From the NCBI GenBank assembly GCA_963797825.1, contig CAWCRR010000041.1, positions 24,436 through 88,435 of the forward strand: a stretch of DNA of 64,000 nucleotides, read 5' to 3'. Made by a program: the position numbers and the translations under genes. Origin of the DNA: an uncultured Verrucomicrobiae bacterium. Lineage in GTDB: Bacteria; Verrucomicrobiota; Verrucomicrobiia; Limisphaerales; UBA11358. Below the pieces are notes generated by a model. It had not been told where the DNA came from, made no database searches, and was given only the letters and a program-made list of their open reading frames with translations. Every line of letters begins with the position of its first letter. The stretch's first letter is position 1. Of the stretch, positions 2,973 through 49,485 are shown piece after piece.

Positions 2973-3049
2973 GGTCGTCTGCGCCCTGAGAGGGCACTCC
3001 AAAAGAACAAATGAAGAGCGCGTTTCTTAGCCTGTGCGCCACAAATTTT

Positions 3050-3460: not shown

Positions 3461-3705
3461 TTGAATGGCAACCGATGACGTTCAGGAGGTGGAATGGGTG
3501 ACGGACAGCGGGAAAACTGCTTGAGCAATCCAACGGCGCCCCGGCGTTTGCCCGGCTTTGGCGTCAGAACAATGCTGTTCTTGCCATCGCGCACCGGACG
3601 CACCTCCACCGTGCCGCCACCGGACAGTCCGGAAGCATCGCGCCACCATTTGGGCAAGGTGCTTTGGCCCACCTTGGAAACAGTCATGGTATCCAAATCT
3701 TTCAT
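3457..3705 (-). CDS. vapB: AbrB/SpoVT-type antitoxin (VapB)
   Basis: 82 aa. MTVSKVGQSTLPKWWRDASGL resembles the swapped-hairpin AbrB/MazE DNA-binding N-terminus. It is translationally coupled to the PIN toxin. Confidence 0.75.
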   Translation of the reverse strand: MKDLDTMTVSKVGQSTLPKWWRDASGLSGGGTVEVRPVRDGKNSIVLTPKPGKRRGAVGLLKQFSRCPSPIPPPERHRLPFK

Positions 3706-3707
3706 CC

Positions 3708-3740
3708 TTTAAGGATTCCTTAAATCGGCCCGCTTGTCAA
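3708..3740 (-). promoter_or_regulatory. Putative vapBC promoter/operator
   Basis: On the minus strand TTGACA (3735-3740) precedes an 8+1+8 perfect palindrome, tttaaggaNtccttaaa (3708-3724). The palindrome ends 3 nt before the vapB ATG. This fits an autoregulatory operator and a near-leaderless mRNA. Confidence 0.4.
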
Positions 3741-3766
3741 TCCTCGTCGTGGAGCCTCGTCGTGGA

Positions 3767-3814
3767 GCCAAGGCTTCCCTCAACGCGCTCGTCGCGGCGG
3801 TGAAAGCGAATTGA
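3767..3814 (+). repeat. Direct repeat copy 2: orphan pntB coding tail
   Basis: 47 of 48 nt are identical to 2810-2857, including the stop codon. A 12-nt tandem duplication (cctcgtcgtggag x2, 3741-3766) precedes it. Confidence 0.9.
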
Positions 3815-5152: not shown

Positions 5153-7234
5153 TCGTCAGCGTTAGCGGTCGAGGCCAGGGCTATAGGATACACCGGCCCG
5201 CTGCCGTTTGAAAGCAACAGATAAGCCGCGACCGTCATCGTCCATCTTGAATCCACCATATCATCCACCAGCAGGACCGCGCCAGCCGGAATATTTGCCA
5301 CTGATCTTCAAGGAACCATCCACATTCCGCGCTTGTTGGCTGCTGTTTGCCATTTGTTTTTGTGCCGGGCGGTCATCCGGTCTTTTCCAGCAGCGGAATG
5401 GAATGGCAGATTTAATGCGGTAGCCAGCCGGCGGGCAAAGTCGCGGCACAAGAGTTCGGATGCCGGCGTGAGGGAATAAAAGCAACCCAAGCGGGCGCCG
5501 GTTGAGGTCGCCCAGGTCTTCACCATCGCCGCGCAGGCTTCGACCAATTGATCGGCAAATCGTCCGTCCTTCGATTTTCCCTTGGCGCACCAATGAACCC
5601 CAGCCCGCGTCGCCCCACATGCAAAGCACACGGCCAGATTGAGCCTGGCACTCCGGCGCAATTCGTCCGCTAATGCCCATTTGAGGCAGTCCGCCTGTTG
5701 GCCATTGACGGCGCGGTTCCAGCGGCAAACTCGTGCGGCGCAGAAATGCGACCGCTTCCCGCGCCAACCCGGCATCAAACGTGTCGGGCAAAGGTGCGAT
5801 ATTCGGAACATGATCGGGAACCGGGTCGCCATCTAATGCGCGAATGAGAAAGTTCCATGTGTCGGGATGTTAGCGCCACATATTCCAGCATCTGCTGTTG
5901 TTCGACGCGACGCAATCCAGTCAGTCGCTCCGCCCGCTCCCAAAATGCGGGAGACAGATTGGCTGTTGTCAAAGTCCATTTGTTTCCCTGCTTCACCGCC
6001 GGGGCGGGCGATTCCAACGATATCAATTGAAGAGCCTTTTCAATGCGCCCTCTCCGGATATTTGCCCGGCTTAATAGTTCATTGACGGAAAGTCCCCCGG
6101 ATGCGTCCCGGAGCGCGGATAGAAGCGATTCAACTTCTTCACGTGATGGAAACGCACTTTCAATGAAAAAATCATTGATGTCTGATTCTTCCACTCCACT
6201 GAGCAGCACCCCATGAGCCGCTGAAATTTGCCGTCCGGCGCGGCCCACCTGCTGATAGTAGGCGACTACGGAGCCGGGCGTTTGGTAATGAATCACAAAG
6301 GCGAGGTCTGGTTTGTCATAGCCCATGCCCAGGGCGGTGGTTGCCACTAAGGCTTTCACGCGATTTTCCAACAAGGCATTCTCCAGTTCAACGCGCCGTT
6401 CGCCGGTCTCGCCGCTGTAAGATTCCGCCCGAATACCTCGCGATTGCAGCCAGCGCGGCGACCTGGACCGCATCGCGCACAGTGAGCGTGTATACAATGC
6501 CACTGCCCGGAATTCCCGGCAGATGCGTTGCCAGCCATGCCATTCGGGCGGCTCTGGCTTGGCATCCGTATCGTCTGAAGAAGTAGCGAAGGCCGGCCCA
6601 ACTCACCACGCGATACTGTTAAATTCGGCCCAAGGATGATTTGCAAATCCTCAAGCACACGGTTGTTCGCTGTCGCCGTCGTGGCGAGCACGCGCAAATT
6701 CGGCGGCAATGTGCGAATCATTCGCTCGATAAGACGATAGTGTGGACGGAAATCATGGCCCCAATCCGAAATGCAGTGCGCCTCATCCACCACCAGTAAC
6801 GAGATGCGTCCCGCCACCGGCCTCAGTACCTCCGCGCGGAAGTGCCCATTCGCCAACCGTTCCGGCGCAACGAGCAGAATGTCCACCTCATTACGGGCCA
6901 GTGCCCCCTCCACACTTTTCCATTCTTCCTGATTCTCAGAATTGATGGTGACCGCTCGAACACCCATCCGATGGGCCGCCACAATCTGGTTTCGCATCAG
7001 CGCCAAAAGCGGCGATATCAGAATGGCCGGCCCCAGACCCTGTTCTCGCAATAATTTAGCCGCAATAAAATAAACGAAGCTTTTTCCCCAACCAGTTCTT
7101 TGCACGACCAACAATCGACCGCGTCCATCGACGACATGCTGAATGGCGTTCGCCTGCCCTTCGTGAAATGCAGCCGCTGGATTCTGCGTGCCGAGGCGCA
7201 GCAATTCGAGGGCGCGTGTTGGGTTATAAGGCAA
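5149..7234 (-). pseudogene. RecQ-family helicase fused to a ComF-like phosphoribosyltransferase domain, multiply frameshifted
   Basis: ORF 6356..7234 carries helicase motifs, including DEAH (VVDEAHCISDWGHDFRPHY). ORF 5775..6503 carries the helicase C domain (ATTALGMGYDKPD, QQVGRAGR). The PRTase-like tail (VLLVDDMVDSRWTMTV) is visible only in a further frame at 5149-5290. At least five frame changes are needed. Its stop overlaps the dprA-like ATG (ATGA). Confidence 0.7.
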
Positions 7235-11503: not shown

Positions 11504-12718
11504 ATGAGTTCGGTTTTCGCAGACAATTTGCCCGACGCCCAGGGCCATTTCGGTCCCTACGGCGGACGTTATGTGCCGGAGACGCTGATGCACCCGCTGA
11601 AAGAGTTGGAAGAGGAATATTTCCGCGCGCAGCATGATCCGGAATTCCAACGCGAACTTTCCTATTATCTCACGGAATTCGTCGGGCGCCCCACCCCGCT
11701 TTATTTTGCCGAACGCCTCACCAAAGACGCCGGCGGCGCGAAAATTTATCTCAAGCGCGAAGACCTCAACCACACCGGCGCGCACAAGATCAATAACGCC
11801 ATCGGCCAGGTCCTCGTCGCCAAACGGATGGGCAAGACGCGCGTCATCGCCGAGACCGGCGCGGGCCAGCATGGCGTGGCCACGGCCACCGTCGCGGCGA
11901 TGTTCGGCTTGAAATGCTGTATCTACATGGGCGCGGTGGATTGCCGGCGGCAGGAGTTGAACGTCTATCGCATGAAGATGCTCGGCGCGGAAGTCGTGGC
12001 CGTCCATGCGGGACAAAAGACCTTGAAGGAAGCTGTCAACGAGGCCATGCGCGATTGGGTAACGAACATCCGCGACACGCATTACATCCTCGGCACCGCT
12101 TACGGCGCGCATCCCTATCCCGTCATGGTGCGGAATTTCCAGCGCGTCATCGGCGATGAAGCCCGCGCGCAGATTTTGGAAAAGGAAAAGCGGCTGCCGG
12201 ACATGCTCATCGCCTGCGTCGGCGGCGGCTCGAATGCCATCGGCCTGTTCTATCCGTTCCTCGAGGACAAATCCGTGAAGCTCGTCGGCGTGGAAGCAGG
12301 TGGGTTGGGCATCAAACCCGAGCAGCACGCCGCGCGGTTCCAGGGCGGCTCCCTCGGCGTGTTGCAGGGAACGCGCAGTTACATTTTGCAGGACGAATTC
12401 GGCCAGATCCAATCCACCCACAGCGTCAGCGCCGGATTGGATTATGCCGCTGTGGGCCCTGAACACGCCTGGCTGCGCGACGCCAGCCGCGCTGAATACA
12501 CCTACGCCACCGATGCCGAAGCGCTCGAAGGTTTTATGAAACTCGCGCGCCTCGAGGGCATCATTCCCGCGCTCGAAAGCGCGCACGCCATCGCCGAAGT
12601 CATGAAGCGCGCGCCGAAAATGGGCAAGAATGCGCTCATCATTGTGAACCTTTCCGGCCGCGGCGACAAAGACGTGGAGCAGGTCGCGAAGAAATTGAAA
12701 TTGAAGATGCCGAAGTAA
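11504..12718 (+). CDS. trpB: Tryptophan synthase beta chain
   Basis: 404 aa. Motifs are [14 protein letters not shown] (PLP lysine), [10 protein letters not shown] and GGGSNAIG. The protein is full length and intact. Confidence 0.95.
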
Positions 12719-12725
12719 TCGGCTA
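12659..12725 (+). repeat. trpB tail repeat R1 (last 19 codons, stop and 7 nt)
   Basis: This 67-nt segment is repeated at 13133-13199 (about 63/67 identical). A deleted form lies at 13783-13828. Confidence 0.9.
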
Positions 12726-12736
12726 ATTTAGATTAA

Positions 12737-12949
12737 ATGAAAAGAAATTTTACTGCCGTTGTAAAACAGGATGAAGGCTGGTGGATTGGCTGGATTGCGG
12801 AAATTCCCGGGGTCAATTCCCAAGGCAAATCCCGCGCCGAACTTTTGAAAAATTTGCGATCGGCATTGAAAGAAGCATTAGAATTTAACCGCGACGACGC
12901 ACTCGCTGCAGCAAAAACCGATTACGAAGAAGAGCCGATCTTCGTGTGA
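12737..12949 (+). CDS. hicB: HicB-family antitoxin
   Basis: 70 aa. FTAVVKQDEGWWIGWIAEIPGVNSQGKSRAEL is the typical HicB/UPF0150 N-domain. It overlaps the hicA start by 4 nt (GTGA). Confidence 0.8.
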   Translation: MKRNFTAVVKQDEGWWIGWIAEIPGVNSQGKSRAELLKNLRSALKEALEFNRDDALAAAKTDYEEEPIFV

Positions 12950-13131
12950 AGCGGCGCGAGCTAATCCGGCATTTGAGCGCACATGGATGCGTGCTTATCC
13001 GCGAAGGCAGCGATCATTCATGGTGGGGAAATCCGGCAGCCAACCGCCGCTCCGCTGTGCCGAGACATAACGAAATAAACAAATTTCTTGCGCGAAAAAT
13101 TTGCCGCGACCTGGGAATTCCAGAGCCGTGA
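12946..13131 (+). CDS. hicA: HicA-family mRNA interferase toxin
   Basis: 61 aa with a GTG start. LIRHLSAHGCVLIREGSDHSWW..VPRHNEI fits the HicA/YcfA pattern. Confidence 0.8.
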   Translation: MKRRELIRHLSAHGCVLIREGSDHSWWGNPAANRRSAVPRHNEINKFLARKICRDLGIPEP

Positions 13132-13132
13132 G

Positions 13133-13199
13133 CGCGGCGACAAAGACGTGGAGCAGGTGGCGGCCAAATTGAAATTGAAGATGCCGAAGTAATCGGCTA
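13133..13199 (+). repeat. trpB tail repeat R2 (orphan coding tail)
   Basis: It starts 2 nt after the hicA stop. It would encode [19 protein letters not shown]-stop. It differs from R1 by one synonymous change and one replaced codon. Confidence 0.9.
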
Positions 13200-13209
13200 T
13201 TTTATTTTC

Positions 13210-13770
13210 ATGCTTGCGGCAGCTAAACATCGCTTTAGTGTGAAGGAATATTACCGGATGGCGGAAACAGGCGTTTTGCCTTCCAATGCCCGTGTCGAAT
13301 TGCTGAATGGCGAAATCATTGATATGTCACCTATCGGCCCCTTTCATGGCGGAATCACAAAATATTTGAGTAAAATCTTTTTTGGGGCCGCCCAGGGCCG
13401 CTGGATCACGCAAGTCCAGGACCCGGTGCGTTTGGACGATTATTCCGAACCTGAGCCGGACATTGCGCTGCTCAAGCCGATTTCTGATTTTTACCGCAAG
13501 CGGCATCCGCAGCCGGAAGATGTCTTTCTGTTGATTGAAGTCTCCGACACCAGCCTGGAAGCTGATCTTGAACAAAAGCTGCCCGCCTATGGCCGCGCGG
13601 GAATTGTCGAAGTCTGGATTGTGAACCTCAATGCGGCGACGGTTGAAATTTATCGGGAGCCAAACTTCACCGGCTACGGCAGCAAAGCCGTTTTGCGCGC
13701 GGGCGACCAGGCCCAACCGCTGGCGTTTCCCGACGTTGCCGTGGATGTGGCCGAACTGCTGAAACGGTGA
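13210..13770 (+). CDS. Uma2-family (DUF820) putative restriction-endonuclease-like protein
   Basis: 186 aa. The YYRMAE..G....RVELL.GEII.MSP start and the PEPDIAL...E(V)..(S) core are typical of Uma2 proteins. Confidence 0.75.
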   Translation: MLAAAKHRFSVKEYYRMAETGVLPSNARVELLNGEIIDMSPIGPFHGGITKYLSKIFFGAAQGRWITQVQDPVRLDDYSEPEPDIALLKPISDFYRKRHPQPEDVFLLIEVSDTSLEADLEQKLPAYGRAGIVEVWIVNLNAATVEIYREPNFTGYGSKAVLRAGDQAQPLAFPDVAVDVAELLKR

Positions 13771-13782
13771 ACCTCTCTCGGG

Positions 13783-13828
13783 CCGCGCGACGAAGACATG
13801 GAGCAGGTGGCGGCCGAAGTAATCGGCT
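13783..13828 (+). repeat. trpB tail repeat R3 (decayed, 20-nt internal deletion)
   Basis: It shares the gtggcggcc variant with R2. It lacks aaattgaaattgaagatgcc and ends in gaagtaatcggct like R1 and R2. Confidence 0.8.
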
Positions 13829-13895
13829 GATTTGGATTATGTGAAAAGCAATTTTGCTGCCGTTGTAAAACAGGATGGTTCTAATCCGCGAAGGT
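13829..13895 (+). pseudogene. Remnant of a second hicB-hicA copy
   Basis: gatttggattatGTGaaaagcaattttgctgccgttgtaaaacaggatgg matches the R1-hicB junction and the first 13 hicB codons. It is then fused to ctaatccgcgaagg, which resembles hicA codons around LIREG. Confidence 0.65.
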
Positions 13896-16639: not shown

Positions 16640-16868
16640 AAACCCGTCCGCTTGCTGTTCCCTCTCCGCGTCGCGAGTCTGCGAGCGATGGGGAGAGGGT
16701 CAGGGTGAGAATTCCCCGATTCGTTTCGCGCATTGAATCCTTGAACCAGCCGCTTGCTGCCGTGTATTAGAGCTACAACGAGCATCCGCCTGCTGTTCCC
16801 TCTCCGCTCCCATCGGATGGGAGGGGAGAGGGTCAGGGTGAGGTGAGGGTCCGCAGGGTTCATGGGGA
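16640..16868 (-). repeat. Family A repeat copy (ctcaccctgaccctctcccc element)
   Basis: Its reverse complement matches 49486-49800 and 53597-53945, including ggagcggagagggaacagcaggcggatgctcgttgtagctctaat and ttcaatgcgcgaaacgaatcgggg. Boundaries are approximate. Confidence 0.8.
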
Positions 16869-17527: not shown

Positions 17528-17689
17528 TTTACCTTCTTCCGCTACCTTGCCTTGAGTCACCAAAGCGTCGCCATGACTGCGCTGTCCCCCTCAGCAAACA
17601 GCGGTGTTAATGTCGCCATTCCCAATGGCGAAAAAATAATTCAAAGGATTTTTCCCTCCACGGGTTCCAACTTGTCAAAAGCACGATGC

Positions 17690-18244
17690 ATGGCCGACGC
17701 CGACGATGACCTGGTGTTGCAATGCCAAAAAGGCAATGCATTGGCGTTTGAAACGCTCGTGCGAAATCATCAACAAATGATCCATGCCCTGACATTTCGG
17801 ATGACCGGGACCGCGGCCGACGCCGAGGACCTCGCGCAGGAAGCCTTTATCCGCGCCTTCGAGCAGATCCAATCGTTCAACGGCGGCGCAAAATTTTCCA
17901 CCTGGCTCTACAGCATCGCCATGCATGCCTGCCTGAACTGGCGCCGGGCCGAGGCGCGGCGCTTCCAGGCCTACGAAAAATGCGCCGAAGAGACCGCTTC
18001 AACCCTTCAACCCTTTAACGGTTCAACCGCCGCCGCCGGCATGGCCCAACTGGCGCAGGCGGCCTTGATGAAGCTGCCCGCCAAACAGCGCGCGGCAGTG
18101 GTCCTGACCATTTACGACGGGTTGAATCATGCCGAAGCGGCAAAAATCTTGGGCTGTTCGGAGACGACCATCTCCTGGCGCGTCTTCACCGCCAAACGAA
18201 AATTGAAACGGCTGCTGTCCGCAAATGGGAAAAGCCATGAATGA
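17690..18244 (+). CDS. ECF-type RNA polymerase sigma-70 family factor
   Basis: Region 2 (DAEDLAQEAFIRAF.., STWLYSIAMHACLNWRR) and region 4 HTH (NHAEAAKILGCSETTISWRVFTAKRKL) are present. I chose the internal ATG at 17690; the ORF opens at 17510. Confidence 0.85.
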   Translation: MADADDDLVLQCQKGNALAFETLVRNHQQMIHALTFRMTGTAADAEDLAQEAFIRAFEQIQSFNGGAKFSTWLYSIAMHACLNWRRAEARRFQAYEKCAEETASTLQPFNGSTAAAGMAQLAQAALMKLPAKQRAAVVLTIYDGLNHAEAAKILGCSETTISWRVFTAKRKLKRLLSANGKSHE

Positions 18245-18569
18245 TTCCGAGCTGGAACAGAAATTGAAATCCGTGCGCGTCCCGCAACGGACGGAAGACT
18301 ATTGGGAGGACTTCCCCTCGCGCGTGTACGCCCAATTGCCGGCGGCCGTGAGTCAGAGGCCGCGAAGAGCCTTCCTGCCCGCCTGGGCATGGGCTGGCGG
18401 GCTGGCGATGGCTTGCGTAGTCTTTACGCTGGTGATTTGGCCGTCGTTCCAACTGGCCATGAAAGATGAGCGCGCGCTTCATCGCGAACTCGCGGAATTG
18501 CCCCGTCATCTGCACGTCCTGATGGCCGATGAACATGGAATGCATTATTTGATCGCCAACCCACAATGA
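18237..18569 (+). CDS. Putative anti-sigma factor (single-pass membrane protein)
   Basis: Its ATG overlaps the sigma stop codon. It has a short cytoplasmic N-terminus, one TM helix (AWAGGLAMACVVFTLVIW) and a small C-terminal domain. The call rests on position. Confidence 0.5.
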   Translation: MNDSELEQKLKSVRVPQRTEDYWEDFPSRVYAQLPAAVSQRPRRAFLPAWAWAGGLAMACVVFTLVIWPSFQLAMKDERALHRELAELPRHLHVLMADEHGMHYLIANPQ

Positions 18570-18570
18570 T

Positions 18571-19668
18571 ATGCTCTCAGAAACAAAACAGGCGAATGAG
18601 AAAAAACCGGAACTGTCCGCGCCGAAAATCCTGGAGGAGCTTGTCCACCAGGCCGAGCGCGCCGGCGCCAGCGACATCCACCTCCAGATGCGGGGCCATG
18701 TCGCCGAAGTCGCTTTCCGGCTCGATGGCGTGATCTCCCCGGTGAAGGAATTACCCGCGGAAGTCGCCGACCGGGTGTTCGGGCGCGTCAAATTTCTCGC
18801 CAAACTCAAGACCTACCAGGAAACCCTGCCGCAGGATGGCCGCATCGCGCGCGATGAATTGAAAAGCCGCAACGATCTCCGCGTGGCCACCTATCCCACC
18901 GTGACCGGCGAGAAAATCGTCCTGCGCCTGTTCAACACGGATTCCGTCAAGGCCTTGGGCGAGATCGGGCTTCCCGAAAATGCCCGGGTGGAATTGGAAA
19001 AGTTTCTCGGCCAGCCCAGCGGCCTGCTTTTGCTCACCGGCCCCGCGGGCAGCGGCAAGACGACAACGATTTATGCCTGTCTGCGTCACCTCGCTGAAAA
19101 GGGCGGACGCCACATCATCACCGTTGAGGACCCCGTCGAGCAGATTGTCTCCGGCACGATGCAAACCGAGATCAACGAGGCCATCGGCCTTGATTTTGCG
19201 AAAGCCGCCCGGCATCTCCTGCGACAGGACCCGCAAGTGCTCATCCTCGGCGAAATCCGGGATGAAGCCACCGCCCAACTCGCCGTGCGCGCCGGCCTGA
19301 CCGGTCATCTGGTCATTTCCACCCTCCACGCCGGTTCCTGTCGCGGCGTGTTCGAGCGGTTGCTCACCATGTGTGCCGATCATTCCGCCGTGGCCAGCGC
19401 TGTGGAACTCGTCTTGAACCAGCGGCTCATCCGCAAAGTGTGTTCGGGGTGCGACGGATCGGGTTGCGATAGCTGCCTGCAAACCGGTTACAACGGGCGC
19501 CTCCCGTTGGTCGAATCATTGCACATGGACGAAAAAGCGCGCGAGCAAGTCCGCCGGCGCGAATTGTCATCGCTCGCCCCCGCGCAGACGCTCGAAGCGT
19601 CCGCCCGTCTGCTCGTGAACCAGGGCGTCACCAATGAAGCCGAGTTCAAACGCATTTTTGGCCTATGA
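18571..19668 (+). CDS. GspE/PilB-family secretion ATPase (short form without N1 domain)
   Basis: 365 aa. It has Walker A LTGPAGSGKTTT, an Asp box, Walker B ILGEIRD, a His box LVISTLHA and a tetracysteine cluster CSGCDGSGCDSC. It starts 1 nt after the anti-sigma ORF. Confidence 0.88.
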   Translation: MLSETKQANEKKPELSAPKILEELVHQAERAGASDIHLQMRGHVAEVAFRLDGVISPVKELPAEVADRVFGRVKFLAKLKTYQETLPQDGRIARDELKSRNDLRVATYPTVTGEKIVLRLFNTDSVKALGEIGLPENARVELEKFLGQPSGLLLLTGPAGSGKTTTIYACLRHLAEKGGRHIITVEDPVEQIVSGTMQTEINEAIGLDFAKAARHLLRQDPQVLILGEIRDEATAQLAVRAGLTGHLVISTLHAGSCRGVFERLLTMCADHSAVASAVELVLNQRLIRKVCSGCDGSGCDSCLQTGYNGRLPLVESLHMDEKAREQVRRRELSSLAPAQTLEASARLLVNQGVTNEAEFKRIFGL

Positions 19669-19680
19669 ATAGTTTAACCT

Positions 19681-20040
19681 GTAGCAGCGGACATGAGTCC
19701 GCTCTAATTTCATTCAAGCACCGAACAAACGACCGAACTGGCTCATATCGGCTTATCCCGAAGGGATGCAGGCTGGTAGCCACGGGTGGAGCGCCGCGGA
19801 ACCCGTGGACAGGAATTCAGGAAGAGAAAACCCGCCCCCTCGGGGCGGAGGAAAATTCGCGCATTGAACCCCCGAACTTGGTAGGGACGGCGCGCTGCGC
19901 CGTCCGCGCCGCGTTCAGCGGCGCAACGTGGGGCGTGATTGAGCGCGCCTTGGTCCATTCGTTCCGCCCGCTCCACGCGGGCGGGGACATCACAGCACGA
20001 TGTCCCTACCGGAATCAGGGTCAGGGTGAGGTGAGGTCGG
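19681..20040. repeat. Cluster of four REP-type units between gspE and the first pilin-like gene
   Basis: A family E unit lies at 19681-19705. A family B doublet lies at 19880-20010 (gtagggacggcgcgctgcgccgtcc ... gggacatcacagcacgatgtccctac). A family A fragment lies at 20015-20040. Confidence 0.75.
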
Positions 20041-20213
20041 GGCAGACTCATATAAAAGATTGTCTCTCTTTCTTCGCCGGCGTTCATAGTCGGGGCTACA
20101 CCCTGGTGGAGCTTTTATGTGTCATCGGCATTATCGGAGTTTTGGCCGGTCTTTATCTGGGTGCCATCGCCCGGGCCTTTCTTCATATCACGAAGTTTCT
20201 CCACCATTTTTAA
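20031..20213 (+). CDS. Minimal prepilin-type protein (N-terminal methylation motif only)
   Basis: ..HSRG/YTLVELLCVIGIIGVLAG.. is a class III signal with Gly at -1 and Glu at +5. Only 38 residues follow the predicted cleavage site. No in-frame ATG exists, so the GTG at 20031 is my guess. The frame stays open back to 19665. Confidence 0.45.
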   Translation: MRSGQTHIKDCLSFFAGVHSRGYTLVELLCVIGIIGVLAGLYLGAIARAFLHITKFLHHF

Positions 20214-20217
20214 AACC

Positions 20218-21231
20218 ATGAAAAACGACGAATTTGCCTTCTTTAACCAACAACTCGCCGCGATGTTGCGCGACGGCATCCCCCTCGAAGGCGCTTTGCA
20301 CCGGCTGTGCGATGACATGCGCCGCGGCAGATTGCGCGACGAATTGCAGGCCCTCGAAGCCGACCTCTCGCGCGGCACGCCGATGGCCGAAGCTCTCAAA
20401 CCGCGCCAATTGCCCGAACTTTACAAACGGATGGTCCTGATCGGCGTCAAAGGAGGTGACCTGCCGGGCGCGTTGACGATGCTGGCGGATTATTTTCAAC
20501 GGCAGAACGACATTTGGACGCGGCTCAAAAGCATGATGACCTATCCGCTGATCGTCATGTTTGCGGGTTTTTTGATTTCAACCGTGATTGCTCTCCTCTG
20601 GTCCTGTGTCATTGGCCCCTCTTTTCGCAGTGTATTCTCAGGCATGGGATTTATGCTTCCCGGCGCAACCCTGCTTGCCTTTCAAACGTTACGAGTGATT
20701 TGGGTATTTCCGGTCATCCTCGGCATTTTTTTTGTTTTAGTGGTCGGAATAGTTTTTCTGCCTGTCCTGCGCGGAAAATTTCTTTGGCGTTTGCCGGCTT
20801 TCAAAGAAGCAACAGTCTCGCGTGTCGCCTCGGCATTGACCCTCCTTTTAAAAAGCGGCGTCAATTTTCCAGAAGCCGTCGGACTTGTTGAACAGCTTGA
20901 GGATCGCAGCACCGCCGCCGAAGACCTGCGGCAATGGAAGGCAAAGCTGGCCACGGGCGTGTCGAAATTCTCAGAGCTTGCCGTGGCTGATAAGGTGTTT
21001 CCGCCGATGTTCGCCTGGATCGTCGCCAGCGCCGGGGAAGATTTGATTGCCGGAATGAATCGCGCGGCGGAAATCTATTATTCACGCGCCGTTTACCGCA
21101 CTGAAATCGCGCTTTTTTCCGTGCTGCCGGTCGCTTCATTATTCCTTGGGGCCATCGTCCTCTCACAGGCGTTTTTGGTGATCAGCATGTTTTTACCGAT
21201 GTTATATATGATCAACGCCATGTCCTCCTGA
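20218..21231 (+). CDS. GspF/PilC-family platform protein, paralogue 1
   Basis: 337 aa from the ATG at 20218. It has two T2SS-F-like cytoplasmic repeats (FFNQLAAMLRDGIPL.., ALTLLLKSGVNFPEA..) and three TM segments. Confidence 0.8.
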   Translation: MKNDEFAFFNQQLAAMLRDGIPLEGALHRLCDDMRRGRLRDELQALEADLSRGTPMAEALKPRQLPELYKRMVLIGVKGGDLPGALTMLADYFQRQNDIWTRLKSMMTYPLIVMFAGFLISTVIALLWSCVIGPSFRSVFSGMGFMLPGATLLAFQTLRVIWVFPVILGIFFVLVVGIVFLPVLRGKFLWRLPAFKEATVSRVASALTLLLKSGVNFPEAVGLVEQLEDRSTAAEDLRQWKAKLATGVSKFSELAVADKVFPPMFAWIVASAGEDLIAGMNRAAEIYYSRAVYRTEIALFSVLPVASLFLGAIVLSQAFLVISMFLPMLYMINAMSS

Positions 21232-21240
21232 ACAAAAAAT

Positions 21241-22395
21241 ATGAGCGACATCTTTTCCTTTTTTTTCGTTTTCTTTTGGTTCGCATTTTTGATCCTCCTT
21301 CCGGGGTTTCTCTTCTCCTTCCTTCTGCATCATTTGCTCTCGATGCCGATGCATCGGCGCGATCGCGCCTTGTTCTTTTTGGACTTGATTGAAACCGTTT
21401 TGCAGCGGGGGCAATCCGTGGAGCAGGCCATCCTTTCCAGCGCAGAAAATCAGGATCGGGCGATGGGCGTGGGCTATTTTTTGTTGGCCGCGCATATTGA
21501 GAATGGCGCTAAACTGGGCGAAGCGTTGGAAAAGGTGCCTTCTTTCCTGCCGCCGCAAGTCAATGCCATGCTTCAGGCCGGCGAAAAGCAGGGTGATCTA
21601 AAGAGAGTTTTGCCAGCTTGTCGTGAAGTTTTGCGGGTGGCGCCGGACACTGTTCGCACCACGATGCATTATATGGTCGCCATTCTGCTTCTTTTTGCCC
21701 CCATCGCCATTTGGTTGATCAGCGTCCTCTCTGTTTTTGTGATCCCGAGATTTAAAGATGTGGCCGCGGGCTCTGATGCTCCCCTCTGGCCGGTGACACG
21801 ATTTGTCTTTGGATATACTTTTCTGTTCATTGATTTTGAAATGATCATATTTTTCGTCTTGGTAGCCGTCGCCACCATCTACATCGGTGGACCCGGTTTT
21901 GTCCGCTATTTCCGCTTCAAAAGCATTCCTGTGGTCGATGAGCTTGAATGGCACATTCCCTGGAAAAGAAAGAAATTGCAACGGACCTTTTCCGCTATGC
22001 TCGCCGTATTGCTGGATGGCGGCGTGCCGGAGGCTGAAGCGGTACGGCTGGCCGGCGATTGCACGGCCAATGAGATTTGCCGCCGTCGGGCGCAGCAAAT
22101 TGTTTTGGCTTTGCAGCAGGGCCGGAAATTGCAAGATGCAATCGGCGCTTTCGATGTTAGTGGCGAGTTTCGTTGGCGGCTGGCGAATGCCACCCATGCG
22201 CAGGGTGGGTTCTTAAAGGCCCTCAATGGCTGGCTTGAGGCCCTGGATGCCAAAGCCTTTCAGCAGGAAGAAACCGCCACTCATGCCCTCACCAGCGGAC
22301 TGGTCATCATCAATGGAGTGATCGTCGGGCTTATCGCGACGGCGATGTTCGGCGTTTTGATCGCGATCTTAAATGGCCAATTGGCAGGATCATGA
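21241..22395 (+). CDS. GspF/PilC-family platform protein, paralogue 2
   Basis: 384 aa. T2SS-F-like repeats are present (LIETVLQRGQSVEQA.., MLAVLLDGGVPEAEA..) with TM helices. It lies 10 nt after paralogue 1. Confidence 0.7.
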   Translation: MSDIFSFFFVFFWFAFLILLPGFLFSFLLHHLLSMPMHRRDRALFFLDLIETVLQRGQSVEQAILSSAENQDRAMGVGYFLLAAHIENGAKLGEALEKVPSFLPPQVNAMLQAGEKQGDLKRVLPACREVLRVAPDTVRTTMHYMVAILLLFAPIAIWLISVLSVFVIPRFKDVAAGSDAPLWPVTRFVFGYTFLFIDFEMIIFFVLVAVATIYIGGPGFVRYFRFKSIPVVDELEWHIPWKRKKLQRTFSAMLAVLLDGGVPEAEAVRLAGDCTANEICRRRAQQIVLALQQGRKLQDAIGAFDVSGEFRWRLANATHAQGGFLKALNGWLEALDAKAFQQEETATHALTSGLVIINGVIVGLIATAMFGVLIAILNGQLAGS

Positions 22396-22787
22396 AAACA
22401 AAATCATTAAACTTCAATCAAGGCCTGATTGCCCGCAGCCGCCGCGCCTATCTGGAAATGGACATGGTGCTCGCCATCATGATCCTCTCGGTGGCCATCG
22501 TCCCCCTCGCTTTTTCCTTCGCGCGCGAACGCGCCGTCCTCCGCGCGGAATATGTCCGCAGCGTCGCGGATGAGATCGTGGACGGTGAGACGGAAATCCT
22601 GGCGGCCGGCGAATGGAAAGATTTTCCCGACGGCGCGCAAACTTACACTGTCCCTGCCCATGCCGCGGCGGAATTGCCGCCGGGCCGCTTCGAATTGACC
22701 AAAAATGGAAACCATCTCCGCCTGGAATGGTTGCCAAACAAACAACAGGGATTTGGCGCCATTTCCCGCGAAATCACCGTCAAATGA
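22392..22787 (+). CDS. Pilin-like small protein with degenerate N-terminal helix
   Basis: 131 aa. RRAYLEMDMVLAIMILSVAIV resembles a pseudopilin N-helix but lacks the canonical G(-1)/E(+5) spacing. It overlaps the gspF-2 stop by 4 nt. Confidence 0.4.
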   Translation: MKTKSLNFNQGLIARSRRAYLEMDMVLAIMILSVAIVPLAFSFARERAVLRAEYVRSVADEIVDGETEILAAGEWKDFPDGAQTYTVPAHAAAELPPGRFELTKNGNHLRLEWLPNKQQGFGAISREITVK

Positions 22788-22840
22788 ACCTGTCTCTAAC
22801 AATTCGTAGCAGCCGACGTGAGGAGGCTCTGGCCGAAAAA

Positions 22841-22868
22841 TCTCAAATCTCAAATCTCAAATCTCAAA
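22841..22868. repeat. Heptanucleotide tandem repeat (tctcaaa x4) ending at a pseudopilin ATG
   Basis: Read directly. A family E REP unit (22806-22830) precedes it. Confidence 0.85.
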
Positions 22869-23341
22869 TGGATCAGAGATGTTCCGGTATGCTGCTCATC
22901 GAGTGCCTGGTTTACATCGCGGTCTTTGCCGTGCTTCTCACCGGGGCAATGACCGCATTCTATTTTTGCTGGGACAGCTCGACCGCTTTGATCGGCGATA
23001 CCGAGCAGATCCATTCCGCTTTGACCGCCGGCGAGCGCTGGCGCTCAGATGTGCGCGCGGCCACTGGGAACATTTCCATTGCGACCACGCCTGGCGGAGA
23101 AACCGTTAAAATCCCCGAAGGCCAAAACGAAATCGACTACCTTTTCGCCTCCGGCCAGGTCTCCCGCCAAAGCGGATCAGCGAAGGCGGTGGTGCTTTCG
23201 AGAGTGAAAACCTCCGGAATGGAAATGGACGCGCGCGGCGGCGTGACTGCCTGGCGATGGGAACTGGAATTGACGCCGCGCCGGAACGAAACCCACCTCC
23301 CGCTGTCATTCACCTTTGAAGCCGCTCAACCCAAGCCATGA
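22868..23341 (+). CDS. Pseudopilin-like protein (prepilin N-terminal cleavage/methylation motif)
   Basis: MDQRCSG/MLLIECLVYIAVFAVLL has a 7-aa leader, Gly at -1 and Glu at +5. It is 157 aa from the ATG at 22868. An alternative ATG at 22784 overlaps the previous stop. Confidence 0.65.
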   Translation: MDQRCSGMLLIECLVYIAVFAVLLTGAMTAFYFCWDSSTALIGDTEQIHSALTAGERWRSDVRAATGNISIATTPGGETVKIPEGQNEIDYLFASGQVSRQSGSAKAVVLSRVKTSGMEMDARGGVTAWRWELELTPRRNETHLPLSFTFEAAQPKP

Positions 23342-23559
23342 AAATACCAACACCAAACCAGTTTGCGCACCGCGACCGCGGCATGGCGACAATTCTTTTC
23401 ATCGCGCTGCTGGCGATCATGATCGTGCTGGTCACCGCCAATCTTCATGCCCTGGCGCGTCTGCACCGCGAAGTCAAATTACTCGAGCAGCAACAAATCA
23501 AGCGGTTGGAAACTTCCCAAACCAATTCAATCACGGTCACCCATTTGACCTTAAAATGA
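23338..23559 (+). CDS. GspK-like minimal pilin-type protein
   Basis: 73 aa. ..HRDRG/MATILFIALLAIMIVLV is a pilin-type hydrophobic helix without Glu+5, as in GspK-type minor pseudopilins. It has an ATGA overlap with the preceding gene. Confidence 0.4.
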   Translation: MKIPTPNQFAHRDRGMATILFIALLAIMIVLVTANLHALARLHREVKLLEQQQIKRLETSQTNSITVTHLTLK

Positions 23560-23828
23560 ATAACGGCCCCGCCAAAATCAAAATGATCAATGCTTCGATG
23601 CGATGCTTCACCTTTGGCATGCTTGCCCTGCTGCCCATCATCGGAATTCCCTTTGGAATCATCGCCCTGGTCTATGCCGGGAAAGCCCGCGCCGGACAAA
23701 AGAAATTTTGGAACCCCGCTCACGCCCATGTGCTGGCGGGCGGCCTTGTCGCCGCATTATGCACCATTTTGTGGAGTTTTATCTTCATACTAATCATCTT
23801 TAATCTCCTAAACCCAGGCCCGGATTGA
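23556..23828 (+). CDS. Small two-TM membrane protein, last gene of the cluster
   Basis: 90 aa from an ATG that overlaps the previous stop (ATGA). It has two long hydrophobic helices. I recognised no family. Confidence 0.4.
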   Translation: MNNGPAKIKMINASMRCFTFGMLALLPIIGIPFGIIALVYAGKARAGQKKFWNPAHAHVLAGGLVAALCTILWSFIFILIIFNLLNPGPD

Positions 23829-25249: not shown

Positions 25250-25930
25250 ATGAAAATTTTAAACCTTCAATACTGGCTGGTTGGCGCTGCCGTTGCCGCT
25301 TTCCTGGCCGGCGCCGCACAGGCCCAAAATACCCCGGATGTTTCCGTTGTGAATTCGACCGCTCCCGCTGTGACCGCCGCGCCTGCGACCCCCGCGCCGG
25401 AATTGGCCAGCAGCGTTTCCCAAGTCCTGCAGCTTTCTCAGGCGAAAATCAGCGACGGCACCATCGTCAGTTTTATCAACAACTCCAGCACGAGCTATCC
25501 GCTCGCGGCGTCGCAAATCGTTTATCTGAAACAGCAGGGCGTCTCCGACGCAGTGCTCAACGCGATGCTCAACCAACACCCGGCAATTATCGCTTCCAGC
25601 GCGCCGGAGCCGGATAATTCCACGCCCGCCCAAACGGCGACAGCTACCGCTCCCACAGTGACGACGTACGAAACCGTTCCCTCCTCCTCGGTTTACGTCA
25701 TCCCGGATACCCAAACTTATTACTATGACAGCGGGTATTACGGTTATCCGTATTATGGATATCCGTATTACTATGGGCCGGGTGTTTCCATCGGACTGGG
25801 CTGGGGCTGGCATGGCGGCTACGGCGGTGGCTGGCACGGTGGCTATGGTGGCGGTTGGCATGGCGGTGGCGGCGGCTGGCACGGCGGCGGCGGTGGCTGG
25901 CACGGCGGCGGCGGTGGCTGGCATCGCTGA
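25250..25930 (+). CDS. Secreted low-complexity protein with Tyr-rich segment and C-terminal (GGGWH)n repeats
   Basis: 226 aa with a signal peptide. It contains YYYDSGYYGYPYYGYPYYYGP followed by six WHGG(Y/G)GGG repeats. Confidence 0.55.
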   Translation: MKILNLQYWLVGAAVAAFLAGAAQAQNTPDVSVVNSTAPAVTAAPATPAPELASSVSQVLQLSQAKISDGTIVSFINNSSTSYPLAASQIVYLKQQGVSDAVLNAMLNQHPAIIASSAPEPDNSTPAQTATATAPTVTTYETVPSSSVYVIPDTQTYYYDSGYYGYPYYGYPYYYGPGVSIGLGWGWHGGYGGGWHGGYGGGWHGGGGGWHGGGGGWHGGGGGWHR

Positions 25931-33451: not shown

Positions 33452-34687
33452 TCAGCGCTCAATACCATCACCAACCACCCACATTTTAGACTCAGTGATC
33501 AATTTTTCGGACAATGAGTGGATAATGGTATAAGGCTGCACGAGAGGGTTTGAGAATCGGTATCGGAATCTTCTCGACGATCCCTGTCTTTCCAAGACAC
33601 ATCCCCTTTTAGTTGAAATAAACTCATTGAGGTGCCTTTGAATATCCGAAACCGTACAGTCCTCGCCTGTTATAATTGCCATCGTTCTTGCTACTTCTGA
33701 TGCTTGAAAGAACCCTTGTTCATCATTCCCGCACAATGCACATGCGAGAAGTGTCATTTTGTAAGTGCTGGATTTGTGCGCGCTTGAAACAGCGGTATAA
33801 TAAACATGTGCAACGGTTTGCTTCGTCTTAACGATATGATTAACCGCGCTTTCAAAATCCGACTCGATTATTTCTTCGGATTTTCTGTCCACAGCGGCCA
33901 ATCCTGACTCAAGAGCAAGAAGGTGCGTGTAATGAGGTAATCCATGTGATAACCTTATTATTTTTTCCCTCACTTCGGTGGTCATATTTATCCCCGATTT
34001 TTCAAGCCCCTTATCAATGACTTCACCTAATTCTAAATCCGTCATTCGATACATTGGAATTTGTACCAATGCCCTTTCAATAGATTGATGTTCGGCAATT
34101 AGTTCATTGACCGATTGCGCAACGCCCACCAATAAAAGTGTAGTCTCTATGTTGTGATCGGAAAGGTTCTTTATTGTATCTGCCATTAAAGTCCGGCAAC
34201 TCTTATCCTGGATTCGATTAAATTCATCAAAGACAATCAATGTTCGTTCCTTCAATGTGGACAGTGCCCGCCTTACATCGTCAGGAACGACTTTTGCAGG
34301 AATAAGATCGTTAAGATTTTTCTCCGTTTCGGTTTCTTGTTTTGCAAAACCGGGAGATGAAGATTTGATCTTAAATGTTAGTTCTTTGAACGCTTTATGC
34401 CAAAGCGATGAAAAGTCATCGGAGCTATCACAATTAATCGTATCCGAATTAACAATTTTGATCCCGGCCTGCGATGCAAGTTCGGCTAAAACTTTTGCTA
34501 GGGAAGTTTTTCCGACACCCGGCTCGCCATACATAATAGCGTGTTGGCCATGTTGGATAATTGCTCCAATCACCATATCGGTTTGCGTTTGTCGTCCGGC
34601 GAAAAGGCTGTATTTTTCAATTGGCGCTCCCGGCCTAAAAGCCAATCTCAAAAAAGTTCTCATTGCGACTTGATCTTCATCTTTCAT
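33452..34687 (-). CDS. ORC/Cdc6-like AAA+ ATPase with C-terminal winged-helix region (passenger gene)
   Basis: Walker A is YGEPGVGKTSLA and Walker B is LIVFDEFN. The C-terminal part looks wHTH-like. I chose the ATG at 34687 (MKDEDQ); the ORF opens at 34750. Confidence 0.65.
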   Translation of the reverse strand: MKDEDQVAMRTFLRLAFRPGAPIEKYSLFAGRQTQTDMVIGAIIQHGQHAIMYGEPGVGKTSLAKVLAELASQAGIKIVNSDTINCDSSDDFSSLWHKAFKELTFKIKSSSPGFAKQETETEKNLNDLIPAKVVPDDVRRALSTLKERTLIVFDEFNRIQDKSCRTLMADTIKNLSDHNIETTLLLVGVAQSVNELIAEHQSIERALVQIPMYRMTDLELGEVIDKGLEKSGINMTTEVREKIIRLSHGLPHYTHLLALESGLAAVDRKSEEIIESDFESAVNHIVKTKQTVAHVYYTAVSSAHKSSTYKMTLLACALCGNDEQGFFQASEVARTMAIITGEDCTVSDIQRHLNEFISTKRGCVLERQGSSRRFRYRFSNPLVQPYTIIHSLSEKLITESKMWVVGDGIER

Positions 34688-34784
34688 GTCTAAATTGTAA
34701 CCTAATATAATAAATATGCAACTAAAAAATAAGTATTGACACCAATACAATTAAGTGTGACACTAAAGCCTGTAATTTGAAATT

Positions 34785-35615
34785 ATGAATTGCTTAAGCA
34801 CAGAAGAAAGAGCTAGAGTGGTAAATTGTTTGATTGAGGGTTGCAGCTTGCGCTCCACAGTACGCTTAACTGGCGTTGCCAAGAAAACCGTGTCACGCAT
34901 CTTGGTTGAAGTCGGCGAAGCTTGTGCGGCCTATCATGACCGGATTATGCGGAACCTGCCATGCAAGGTGATTCAGGTGGACGAGGTTTGGTCTTTCACT
35001 TATTGCAAACAGGCCAACATTCCAGACCACTTACAAGGGCAAGACGGTATAGGGGACACCTGGACATGGATCGCCATTGATGCTGACTCAAAACTCATCC
35101 CCTCATGGCATGTTGGATTGCGTGATTCCGCCGCCGCTTATCACTTTATTCACGATTTAGCCGGACGGCTAGCACATCGCGTCCAGCTAACCAGCGACGG
35201 CCACAGGCCGTATTTGGAAGCTGTGGAAGATGCCTTTGGCAGCGAGATTGATTATTCGATGCTGATAAAAATGTATGGGCGCGAAACTGGCATTGGTGAA
35301 GTCCGCTATTCACCGCCAGTTTGTATTGGGGCGCGCCGTCGTAAAATCATCGGGAATCCAGACCGCAATCTGGTTTCCACCAGCTATGTTGAACGCCAGA
35401 ATTTGACGCTTCGCATGACTAACCGCCGTTTTACCCGCCTGACGAATGCCTTTTCAAAAAAAATTGAGAACCACAAGCACATGATTGCGATTTACGCCAT
35501 GAATTATAATTTTTGCCGGATTCATCAGACTTTACGTTGCACTCCGGCAATGGAGGCTAAAATCACAGACCGCGTTTGGAGCTTGGAAGAAATGATAAAT
35601 TCGATTACCAATTAA
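34785..35615 (+). CDS. IS1-family transposase (single-ORF type)
   Basis: 276 aa with an N-terminal HTH. DDE-type core blocks are VIQVDEVWSF, WTWIAIDADSKL, LTSDGHRPY, YVERQNLTLRMTNRRFTRLTNAFSKK and NYNFCRIHQTL. Confidence 0.8.
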   Translation: MNCLSTEERARVVNCLIEGCSLRSTVRLTGVAKKTVSRILVEVGEACAAYHDRIMRNLPCKVIQVDEVWSFTYCKQANIPDHLQGQDGIGDTWTWIAIDADSKLIPSWHVGLRDSAAAYHFIHDLAGRLAHRVQLTSDGHRPYLEAVEDAFGSEIDYSMLIKMYGRETGIGEVRYSPPVCIGARRRKIIGNPDRNLVSTSYVERQNLTLRMTNRRFTRLTNAFSKKIENHKHMIAIYAMNYNFCRIHQTLRCTPAMEAKITDRVWSLEEMINSITN

Positions 35616-35617
35616 TT

Positions 35618-36253
35618 ATGTCCAACATCAATCAGAACCAACCCACCATTCCCGCTGTTCATTTTCCGCCACAAGCAATTCCGCAGCCGATTCAGACAGC
35701 AAAAACGATTTACATTAATTTTTTTGACGGCATAAACGAGCCGAAAGTTAAGGCGTTAATGGGAATGATTTCTCAAATGGTCGCCCAAAATCGTCCAGAA
35801 ACGTTATATTTTCTGTTCTCGTCTCCTGGCGGTTCCGTAGATGCAGGAATCGTGCTTTATAATTTTCTCCGGGCTTTGCCTGTGGAAATCGTTATGCACA
35901 ACACTGGAACTGTTGCTTCTATTGGGACGGTTATTTATATGGCTGGATCGAAACGATATGCCGCGCCCCAATCAACATTTTTATTTCACGGAGTTCAGAC
36001 CCTTTTCCCACCCAATGCCCCCATGTCGCATCAGCAACTTTTTGAGAGGCTCAGCATGGTCCGGCAGGATGAAAATAAAATAGCTGGAATTATAGCCTCC
36101 CGATCAAGTTTGTCAGAAAAGGAGATTCGGAAACTATTTCACCAAGGGGAATCCAAAGACTTGGCGTTTGCTCAAAGCAAATCCATCGTCCACGAAGTTC
36201 GAGACCCTGCTATCCCCAAAGACGCACCATTCGTCACCGTTAACCTCAATTGA
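35618..36253 (+). CDS. ClpP/S14-like serine peptidase (passenger gene)
   Basis: 211 aa. FSSPGGSVDAG, TGTVASIGTVIYMAG (Ser nucleophile context) and FLFHGV (His) align with ClpP blocks. It starts 2 nt after the transposase stop. Confidence 0.65.
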   Translation: MSNINQNQPTIPAVHFPPQAIPQPIQTAKTIYINFFDGINEPKVKALMGMISQMVAQNRPETLYFLFSSPGGSVDAGIVLYNFLRALPVEIVMHNTGTVASIGTVIYMAGSKRYAAPQSTFLFHGVQTLFPPNAPMSHQQLFERLSMVRQDENKIAGIIASRSSLSEKEIRKLFHQGESKDLAFAQSKSIVHEVRDPAIPKDAPFVTVNLN

Positions 36254-49437: not shown

Positions 49438-49485
49438 TGCGGAGAATGAGGAATGCAGAATGAAGAAATAGGGCAATGCCCCCCT

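Follow-up and report, generated by a model that had tools for sequence, protein, structure and literature searches.

Gene content and organization of the cluster

The 64-kb window analysed here, a stretch of 64,000 nt of contig CAWCRR010000041.1 from an uncultured Verrucomicrobiae bacterium, contains ten co-directional open reading frames (ORFs) between 17.5 and 23.9 kb, all on the + strand. Together they form a compact and conserved set of type IV filament (T4F) genes that encodes a single assembly ATPase (E) and two platform paralogues (F1 and F2), and the set represents a previously undescribed, strongly conserved T4F variant. Ten tightly packed ORFs with one GspE-like ATPase and two GspF paralogues had been proposed in the initial annotation, and all were recovered in the ORF list; in the Pfam and NCBIfam scans, four small proteins gave no family match. 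All coordinates refer to the window. The features of the cluster are as follows (aa, amino acids; TM, transmembrane; the arrow marks the prepilin cleavage site):

17573–18244, + strand: extracytoplasmic function (ECF)-type sigma factor, 223 aa (Sigma70_r2 70.6 bits, Sigma70_r4_2 47 bits)
18237–18569, + strand: putative anti-sigma factor, 110 aa, single-pass membrane protein (from position and topology)
18571–19668, + strand: GspE/PilB-type assembly ATPase E, 365 aa (T2SSE 310.7 bits)
19669–20030, no strand: intergenic spacer, 362 nt, with dispersed repetitive extragenic palindromic (REP)-like repeats between E and the mini prepilin
20031–20213, + strand: mini prepilin, 60 aa from a GTG start (N_methyl 25.5 bits, TIGR02532 25.8 bits)
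20218–21231, + strand: platform protein F1, 337 aa (T2SSF 104 bits; two T2SSF stretches, 3 TM segments, no N-domain)
21241–22395, + strand: platform protein F2, 384 aa (T2SSF 65 bits; two T2SSF stretches, 4 TM segments)
22392–22787, + strand: p131, GspI-sized pilin-like protein (prepilin site RRA↓YLEMD)
22868–23341, + strand: p157, putatively GspJ-like pilin-like protein (site G↓MLLIEC; N_methyl 15.1 bits, below cut-off)
23338–23559, + strand: p73, a stub with a GspK/PilX-type N-terminus (site RG↓MATILFIALLAIM, no Glu5)
23556–23828, + strand: conserved 2-TM membrane protein, 90 aa, closing the module (two hydrophobic segments)

The sigma and anti-sigma genes overlap by 8 nt, and the following gaps measure 1 nt (anti-sigma/E), 4 nt (mini prepilin/F1) and 9 nt (F1/F2). 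ATGA overlaps of 4 nt were observed at F2/p131, p157/p73 and p73/2-TM. For p157, a start at 22784 in place of 22868 is possible and would overlap the p131 stop, and four ATGA overlaps are possible in all. The initial annotation described several junctions of 1–4 nt; E and the mini prepilin are separated by the 362-nt spacer. An Rfam scan found no RNA element in the cluster.

Conservation and distribution of the operon

The ten window proteins were compared by tblastn with 66 loci, taken from one genome per species. The order E-F1-F2-p131-p157-p73-2TM was kept wherever the contig spans it, down to an F2 identity of 41%. All seven genes were detected and collinear in 39 loci, and the remainder consists mostly of truncated contigs or of loci with a gene too diverged to be detected. 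Order anomalies were observed in four loci, two of which (L043 and L067) are real. The median gap was −4 nt at five of the six junctions.

F2 has more than 1400 homologues, with 69–82% identity over the top 120 clusters, and its profile retrieved 311 clusters (at 50% identity, E ≤ 1e-30) from 1.84 billion representatives. The named F2 clusters belong to Verrucomicrobiota, save for a single member with the label Candidatus Paceibacterota. For F2, p157 and p131, homologues run from hundreds to thousands, and their named sources are Verrucomicrobiota, Verrucomicrobiia or Limisphaerales metagenome-assembled genomes. The 66 loci are likewise nearly all labelled Verrucomicrobiia, Limisphaerales or "subdivision 3", and a few bins seem mislabelled.

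Among the distant loci, L077 and L079 (the latter on a contig of 10.5 Mb) contain the same seven genes, while L075 carries F1-F2 and three small genes with no adjacent E. The distant loci retain the N-terminal motifs of the small proteins, their internal signatures and a compact CxxC-x3/4-CxxC in E, and the cluster is therefore an old, coherent module and not a chance arrangement. A lack of conservation had been named at the outset as refuting the proposal, and the cluster core was found to be strongly conserved, both in the 66 loci and in the distant relatives. The core operon is real and widely conserved in soil Verrucomicrobiota. The module is abundant in soil and freshwater members of the phylum (hundreds of clusters), yet it has been annotated piecemeal as "GspE", "GspF family" or "hypothetical". 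Recurrent neighbours, including AhpC/thioredoxin-like and GmhA/SIS-like genes, were considered as parts of the system and rejected, as they reflect plain synteny of housekeeping genes.

A short assembly ATPase

E scored 310.7 bits against T2SSE (cut-off 24.9), as a generic ATPase of the type IV filament superfamily (TFF), and its translation shows an intact Walker A (GPAGSGKT), Asp box, Walker B and His box. The protein consists of N2 and the C-terminal ATPase domain (CTE). Its alignment to V. cholerae EpsE (4pht) begins only at EpsE residue 118, and E therefore lacks N1E, the GspL-binding domain. The MshEN/GSPII domain is also absent, in agreement with the initial description of a short GspE without the N-terminal domains. 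The zinc motif CxxC-x4-CxxC is compact, with 4 residues between the cysteine pairs against ~25 in EpsE.

At the level of specific families, E scored below every cut-off: 312.4 bits for GspE (cut-off 630.25), 294.9 bits for PilB (TIGR02538, cut-off 675.65, alignment from model position 171) and 236.3 bits for ComGA (cut-off 300, positions 2–266 of the 267-position model). Models of the TadA/VirB11 type gave 28–44 bits, with 28.4 bits for the TadA-family conjugal ATPase (cut-off 373). A PDB search returned EpsE (217.2 bits), PilB (216.6 bits) and PilF (214 bits) as equally distant from E, and placed E far from PilT, BfpD and DotB.

Two derived platform proteins

Both F1 and F2 exceed the T2SSF cut-off of 25.2 and are polytopic, as expected for TFF platform proteins. 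The additional TM segment of F2 is N-terminal, and F2 is highly derived. Neither protein reached the cut-off of the GspF model TIGR02120 (133.6 bits for F1 and 62.7 for F2, cut-off 424) or of ComGB (74.3 and 45.7 bits, cut-off 240), and their PilC scores (105 and 49 bits), likewise under the model's cut-off, were below those for GspF. F1 matched PilC of M. xanthus (3jc8) with 88 bits, while F2 barely matched it (24 bits). The two paralogues share 25% identity (41 bits), and F1 is closer to PilC than to F2, so the duplication that produced them is old. In L078 (82–7645), E is followed by four platform genes arranged as two F1-F2 pairs and then by small pilin-like genes; the platform pair was therefore duplicated as a unit in this locus.

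A Tyr-Pro in transmembrane segment 1 (TMS1) and a Glu/Gln-Pro in TMS3 have been reported as conserved in all GspF/PilC/ComGB proteins, where they line a trimeric channel (Guilvout et al., PMC10790770). F1 retains the TMS1 Tyr-Pro and shows Leu-Pro in TMS3 in the window, with Leu/Met-Pro across its orthologues. F2 has Tyr-Met in TMS1, with Met in place of Pro, and Thr-Ser in TMS3. These changes are themselves conserved across the orthologues of both proteins. With two full-length paralogues, both without the TMS3 Glu, the module offers a test case for the trimeric ion-channel model of the platform.

Pilin-like proteins and the 2-TM protein

Candidate class III signal peptides, as in other TFF members, were identified through the N_methyl match of the mini prepilin and through the p131 and p157 sites, each conserved in at least 60 orthologues. 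Across 64 orthologue N-termini, the p131 site reads RG↓FLxVD, or RG↓xxxxE with Glu5 in deep clades, and an internal signature, VDGEMEILAAGEW, is conserved up to the distant loci. The AlphaFold2 (AF2) model of p131, built from ~60 homologues (mean predicted local distance difference test, pLDDT, 80.4), shows a 65-residue N-terminal helix and a four-stranded sheet, an architecture typical of pilins; Foldseek gave no significant PDB match for it, and the profile gave no relevant match among PDB sequences.

In p157, the site G↓x-L-L-I-E-C has G-1 and E+5 conserved across 60 orthologues, and the internal signature GERWRADVR is kept in distant loci. The AF2 model (~60 homologues, pLDDT 88.1) predicts a long helix and an eight-stranded sheet. 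The best PDB matches in Foldseek were EpsJ (3cfi) and XcpW (5bw0/3nje/5vtm), with a probability of 1.00, TM ~0.5 and E ~0.02, which supports a GspJ-like fold for the modelled protein, while the p157 profile returned nothing relevant among PDB sequences.

The p73 protein carries a G↓(M/S)A(T/V)V.F site and a LHREVKLLEQQQIKRLN segment in 51 orthologues and in the distant loci L075 and L077–L079. Its helix is followed by a short coiled stretch and a tail of low complexity, with no globular domain, and it matched no Pfam or NCBIfam family. The order p131-p157-p73 matches gspI-J-K, and judging from order, sizes and motifs the three proteins read as an I-J-K priming set, with p131 I-like, p157 J-like and p73 K-like, the K component being reduced to its helix. 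A GspH-like pilin was not found in the set. A licensing model in which I-J and K prime assembly has been described for type II secretion systems (T2SS) and type IV pili (T4P) (PMC13533445).

The gene of the 2-TM protein lies 3' of p73 in 59 of the 66 loci, overlapping it by 4 nt at 48 of the 49 junctions measured, and was also identified in L077 and L079. The matches of the protein to DUF4190/DUF4199 are only sub-threshold.

The repeat spacer and the mini prepilin

Two segments of the spacer, 19877–19927 and 19956–20010, are repeated at 51010–51155 and 57553–57677. Overall, two intergenic palindromic repeat families resembling REP elements or miniature inverted-repeat transposable elements (MITEs) were observed in the window, with further copies at 16742–16867, 49475–49665 and 53210–53787, and one copy has been inserted into the operon 3' of E, ahead of the mini prepilin.

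The N_methyl score of the mini prepilin (25.5 bits) is above the cut-off of 21.2, and the motif lies in the last 40 codons of the ORF. The predicted mature part comprises 38 aa, YTLVELLCVIGIIGVLAGLYLGAIARAFLHITKFLHHF. The GTG at 20031 is the only start option in the window, the ancestral ATG has been lost, and the start is uncertain. The orthologue in L080 has 48 aa (MKLRRHSERG↓YTMIELLC..., with a 4-nt ATGA overlap with the E stop) and that in L006 has 51 aa. The predicted mature mini pilins, of 38–41 aa, are essentially the alpha1 helix alone.

This gene is restricted to the window and its two nearest relatives and is missing in the other 66 loci; F1 follows E directly in 45 of 55 related loci, with a 4-nt overlap of stop and start that leaves no space for a further gene. 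The mini prepilin is a real gene and a lineage-specific addition, possibly impaired in this window. As a major pilin it was rejected, because nearly all relatives lack it. The four miniature pilin genes of the initial annotation are accordingly to be divided: p131, p157 and p73 occur family-wide, while the mini prepilin is specific to a subclade.

The ECF sigma/anti-sigma pair

The sigma factor scored 99.8 bits against TIGR02937 (cut-off 42.9) and comprises regions 2 and 4 only, as in ECF (group 4) proteins. Against TIGR02989, the Rhodopirellula/Verrucomicrobium family, it scored 72.7 bits, below the cut-off of 124.55, and a specific ECF group was not reached. Its start had initially been placed at 17690 (184 aa). 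An N-terminal extension of 39–42 codons, in frame with an upstream ATG and bearing a (K)IIQRI motif, is kept in 35 of 36 loci, and the start most likely lies at 17573 for this reason. The Joint Genome Institute (JGI) likewise calls the gene as 223 aa in L006 and L080.

Within this extension (17573–17689), the 9-mer TCAAAGGAT at 17641–17649 encodes part of (K)IIQRI. It is unchanged in 36 of 36 loci, including its Gln CAA and Arg AGG codons, and the adjacent codons are variable. Its distance to the methionine of MADAD is 49 nt in 31 of 35 loci and 37–73 nt in the remaining four. Beyond its coding role, the 9-mer thus seems to be constrained as a nucleotide sequence, for example as an internal promoter or a signal for translation. 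As an ECF promoter common to the sigma-less loci, the 9-mer was ruled out, being found only inside the sigma gene and never 5' of E. No conserved −35/−10 pair was found in a search upstream of the sigma gene, where the regions are rich in short REP-like repeats, and a generic scan for sigma-70 promoters and terminators stayed at background level.

The 110-aa product downstream, for which an alternative ATG at 18225 would give 114 aa, matched no Pfam or NCBIfam family. In 38 orthologues, always directly 3' of the sigma gene, it shows a conserved N-terminus (MNDFELESKLK..P.R..YW..FP) and C-terminus (LM.DEHG..L), the N-terminus being cytoplasmic and followed by one TM segment and a short periplasmic tail that is also conserved. 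From its position and topology we propose it as a putative anti-sigma factor.

The pair was observed directly 5' of E in 35 of the 50 informative Limisphaerales loci, the deepest clades included, always in the order sigma, anti-sigma, E and with tiny gaps. The other 15 loci lack it, and in 12 of these E is abutted by the thioredoxin/AhpC-like gene that elsewhere lies 5' of sigma. The initial description of the operon as ECF-sigma-linked thus applies to the majority of Limisphaerales loci and not to these 15 or to L075, L077, L078 and L079, and the link is a trait of a sublineage. The pair is a frequent accessory, not a core part, and is probably ancestral within Limisphaerales. Given the co-orientation and the 1-nt gap, the operon may be under the control of its sigma factor. 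A dedicated ECF sigma/anti-sigma coupling suggests filament assembly that is induced by a signal, and a limited literature search found no report of such a coupling to T4F assembly.

Missing components and comparison with known systems

The scan outside the cluster took in 40 ORFs of the window with a length of 200 aa or more, chosen as one for each locus with a few added in alternative frames. Among these 40, no secretin, prepilin peptidase (Peptidase_A24), PilM/N/O or GspC/L/M was found, which bears out the corresponding absences of the initial annotation for ORFs of this size. The scanned ORFs encode housekeeping and regulatory proteins, including PntAB, DprA, GH39, an MqnC-like radical SAM protein, Obg, LptF/G, histidine kinases and insertion sequence (IS) fragments. 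PilP/Q and PilT were likewise not found among them. In 8 related loci with Pfam annotation, no secretin, prepilin peptidase, PilM/N/O/P/Q, PilT or Tad accessory gene was found, nor any GspC/D/G/H/L/M/O within ~8 kb. The cluster had further been described as unassignable to T2SS, to type IVa or IVb pili (T4aP, T4bP), or to Tad or Com systems, and the features tested agree with this, as the hidden Markov model (HMM) scores are below the cut-offs and the accessory genes are missing at the locus.

One alternative holds that E, the platforms and the minor pseudopilins belong to an ordinary T2SS, with GspD, GspC/L/M, GspG and GspO at other loci, as in the split T2SS of non-proteobacterial phyla. GspE and GspF are indeed the best HMM matches of E (312 bits against 295 for PilB), F1 (134 against 105 for PilC) and F2 (63 against 49); E shares N2, CTE and the tetracysteine site with T2SS ATPases, p157 resembles the GspJ structures EpsJ/XcpW, the genes follow the I-J-K order, and K lacks Glu5. 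T2SS without minor pilins or GspLM have also been noted in other phyla (Denise et al. 2019, PLoS Biol 17:e3000390). However, the scores lie far under the equivalog cut-offs, at about half for E (312/630) and at no more than a third for F1 and F2 (134/424 and 63/424). E lacks the GspL-binding N1E and has a zinc loop of 4 rather than ~25 residues, both of the two platforms lack the N-domain and the TMS3 Glu, and K has only 73 aa and no globular domain. GspC, D, G, H, L, M and O are absent from the operon and its neighbourhood and were found within ~8 kb in no annotated relative, and the module has a dedicated ECF sigma; we regard an ordinary T2SS as unlikely. The cluster could also be the motor of a surface T4a-like pilus for adhesion or motility, with PilQ, PilMNOP, PilT and the major pilin elsewhere. 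E scores almost alike for PilB and GspE (295 and 312 bits; against the PDB, 216.6 and 217.2 bits), the genes of T4aP usually lie dispersed at several loci (Denise et al. 2019), and the annotation in some sources is PilC for F2 and FimT or PilX for p157. Against this, E has no MshEN/GSPII domain, PilMNOPQ occurs in no locus and pilT was not found nearby, the scores are below the cut-offs, including that for PilB, PilV/W/X greatly exceed the minor pilins in size, and PilY1 is not present, so that such a pilus motor appears distinctly improbable.

By layout, the cluster recalls the comG operon, and a minimal Com-like competence pseudopilus for DNA uptake was also considered. Shared features are the short ATPase without N1, a platform without the N-domain (also missing in ComGB; PMC10790770), several small pilins of ~70–160 aa, the lack of PilMNO/GspLM and a peptidase presumably encoded elsewhere; E aligned over the whole ComGA model (2–266/267, 236 bits), and dprA lies in the window (4096–5025). 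ComM systems, however, form a monoderm clade (Denise et al. 2019), whereas the window encodes LptF/G, outer-membrane beta-barrels and a heptosyltransferase, as in a diderm member of Verrucomicrobiota. The ComGA (236/300) and ComGB (74 and 46/240) scores are below the cut-offs and lower than those of the GspE/GspF models, there are two platform genes and not one, an extra 2-TM protein is present, and neither an evident major pilin nor a ComGC-like one was identified. The dprA gene is 13 kb off on the other strand and near-universal in bacteria, and comEA and comEC were not found nearby. Com is regulated by ComK/ComX-type systems and not by an ECF sigma. A competence pseudopilus is thus very unlikely. 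As for a decaying, non-functional remnant with small ORFs arising by chance, the REP repeats ahead of a mini prepilin that lost its ATG here and two platforms lacking a residue reported as universal would fit this reading. It is contradicted by the conservation data, with seven intact core genes whose order and translational coupling are kept in 66 species and in distant relatives, F2 at 69–82% identity over the top 120 clusters, the catalytic motifs of E intact and the F1/F2 substitutions themselves conserved, which leaves it hardly credible.

Tad/Flp systems resemble the module in having one ATPase with two adjacent homologous platform genes and very small pilins. TadB and TadC, which arose by gene fission, have one T2SSF domain each (Denise et al. 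2019), while F1 and F2 have two each and are therefore a true duplication. The ATPase is moreover of the GspE/PilB type and not the TadA type, the prepilin motifs are of the GspG/PilA type and not Flp, and RcpA, TadZ and TadG are missing.

"Generic" TFF systems have been defined as clustered genes for an ATPase, an inner-membrane platform and pilin-like proteins that fit no specific model (Denise et al. 2019), and the module matches this definition exactly. Platform duplication was reported there only for TadB/TadC and some archaeal T4P, and the duplicated two-domain platform found here is not described; Verrucomicrobia, Planctomycetes and the Planctomycetes-Verrucomicrobia-Chlamydiae (PVC) group are absent from the main text of that study. 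No account of this module came up in our literature searches. On the sequence evidence it classes as an unclassified, "generic" T4F variant, nearest to T2SS by its parts and to the ComG operon by its architecture.

Proposed function of the module

Taken together, the cluster probably supplies the core, in the inner membrane, of a T4F subtype that is distinct and specific to Verrucomicrobiota. In the mechanism that we propose, hexameric E, without the N1 that normally docks on GspL, would act on a hetero-oligomeric platform of a canonical-like F1 and a derived F2. The p131, p157 and p73 proteins would be cut by a prepilin peptidase encoded elsewhere and form an I-J-K-type priming complex at the tip. 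The filament body would be built from a pilin outside the conserved operon, candidates being the DUF1559/SBP_bac_10 prepilin-like proteins common in the phylum, and the 38-aa mini pilin may contribute to the filament in the subclade of the window. The machine would run without PilM/N/O or GspC/L/M alignment proteins, as do monoderm Com pili, and the 2-TM protein may partly substitute for them. In this organism and most Limisphaerales, the operon would be co-transcribed with, and probably induced by, the ECF sigma/anti-sigma pair, and assembly would then respond to an envelope signal rather than being constitutive. The filament may be periplasmic, or may pass through a secretin encoded elsewhere.

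Genes for DUF1559/SBP_bac_10 prepilin-like proteins (AFTLIELL... or GFTLIELL...) were observed 2–5 kb downstream of F2 or of the last gene in L003, L020, L015, L035, L049, L069, L070, L075 and L077. They faintly hint at these proteins as filament substrates, and the unexplained expansion of DUF1559 prepilin-like proteins seen in PVC bacteria may have its machine in this module.

Several points weigh against this proposal. With the TMS3 Glu missing from F1 and F2, their mechanism could be altered or their role non-canonical. Size, order and N-terminal motifs underlie the I and K assignments, with no significant structural match for p131, and the Foldseek E-value of p157 is weak (0.02). The sigma factor is absent in 30% of the close loci and in all four distant loci (L075, L077, L078 and L079). 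DUF1559-type genes flank only 13 of 73 loci, mostly 3–5 kb downstream, and may reflect chance and local synteny. The negative results concern the locus only, and the standard missing parts may sit elsewhere in the genome. A search of RNA-seq runs with the sequence matched only 3 runs, all of soil DNA and none of RNA.

A broader version of the proposal can be formulated, in which the module represents a hitherto unrecognized, phylum-wide T4F class with an obligate heteromeric F1/F2 platform, both subunits lacking the channel glutamate, a bare-helix K and no alignment subcomplex. Such a class would serve as the dedicated engine for assembling the expanded DUF1559/SBP_bac_10 pseudopilins of Verrucomicrobiota and perhaps other PVC bacteria, and in Limisphaerales an envelope-sensing ECF sigma would switch it on. 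We consider this extension rather doubtful. As a natural minimal T4F in a diderm, without PilMNO/GspLM, the module bears on the question of what such a machine needs.

Other features of the window

An Rfam match to the Acido-Lenti-1 small RNA was identified at 53491–53535 (38.2 bits, gathering score 37), inside a 64-nt repeat (family D9) with a second copy at ~49378–49422, 4.1 kb upstream. The ORF at 25250–25930 encodes a secreted-looking protein with C-terminal tandem GGWHGGGGG/GYPYY repeats (DNA repeat family D2) and no Pfam match. Short duplicated gene 3' ends were observed at 12659–13877, in three copies of 72–87 nt downstream of a PALP (TrpB-like) gene, and at 2810–3814, in two copies of 48 nt downstream of pntB.

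Two genes on the − strand are split into overlapping ORFs: a DEAD-box helicase at 5775–7234 (DEAD 6356–7234, Helicase_C 5775–6503) and a FadL/Toluene_X outer-membrane protein at 38810–40139 (39300–40139 and 38810–39496). Both are frameshifts, pseudogenes or assembly errors. The region at 33452–36253 has a low GC content (0.44 vs ~0.56) and carries a STAND/AAA NTPase, an IS1-like transposase fragment and a ClpP-like protease, and is possibly a mobile island.

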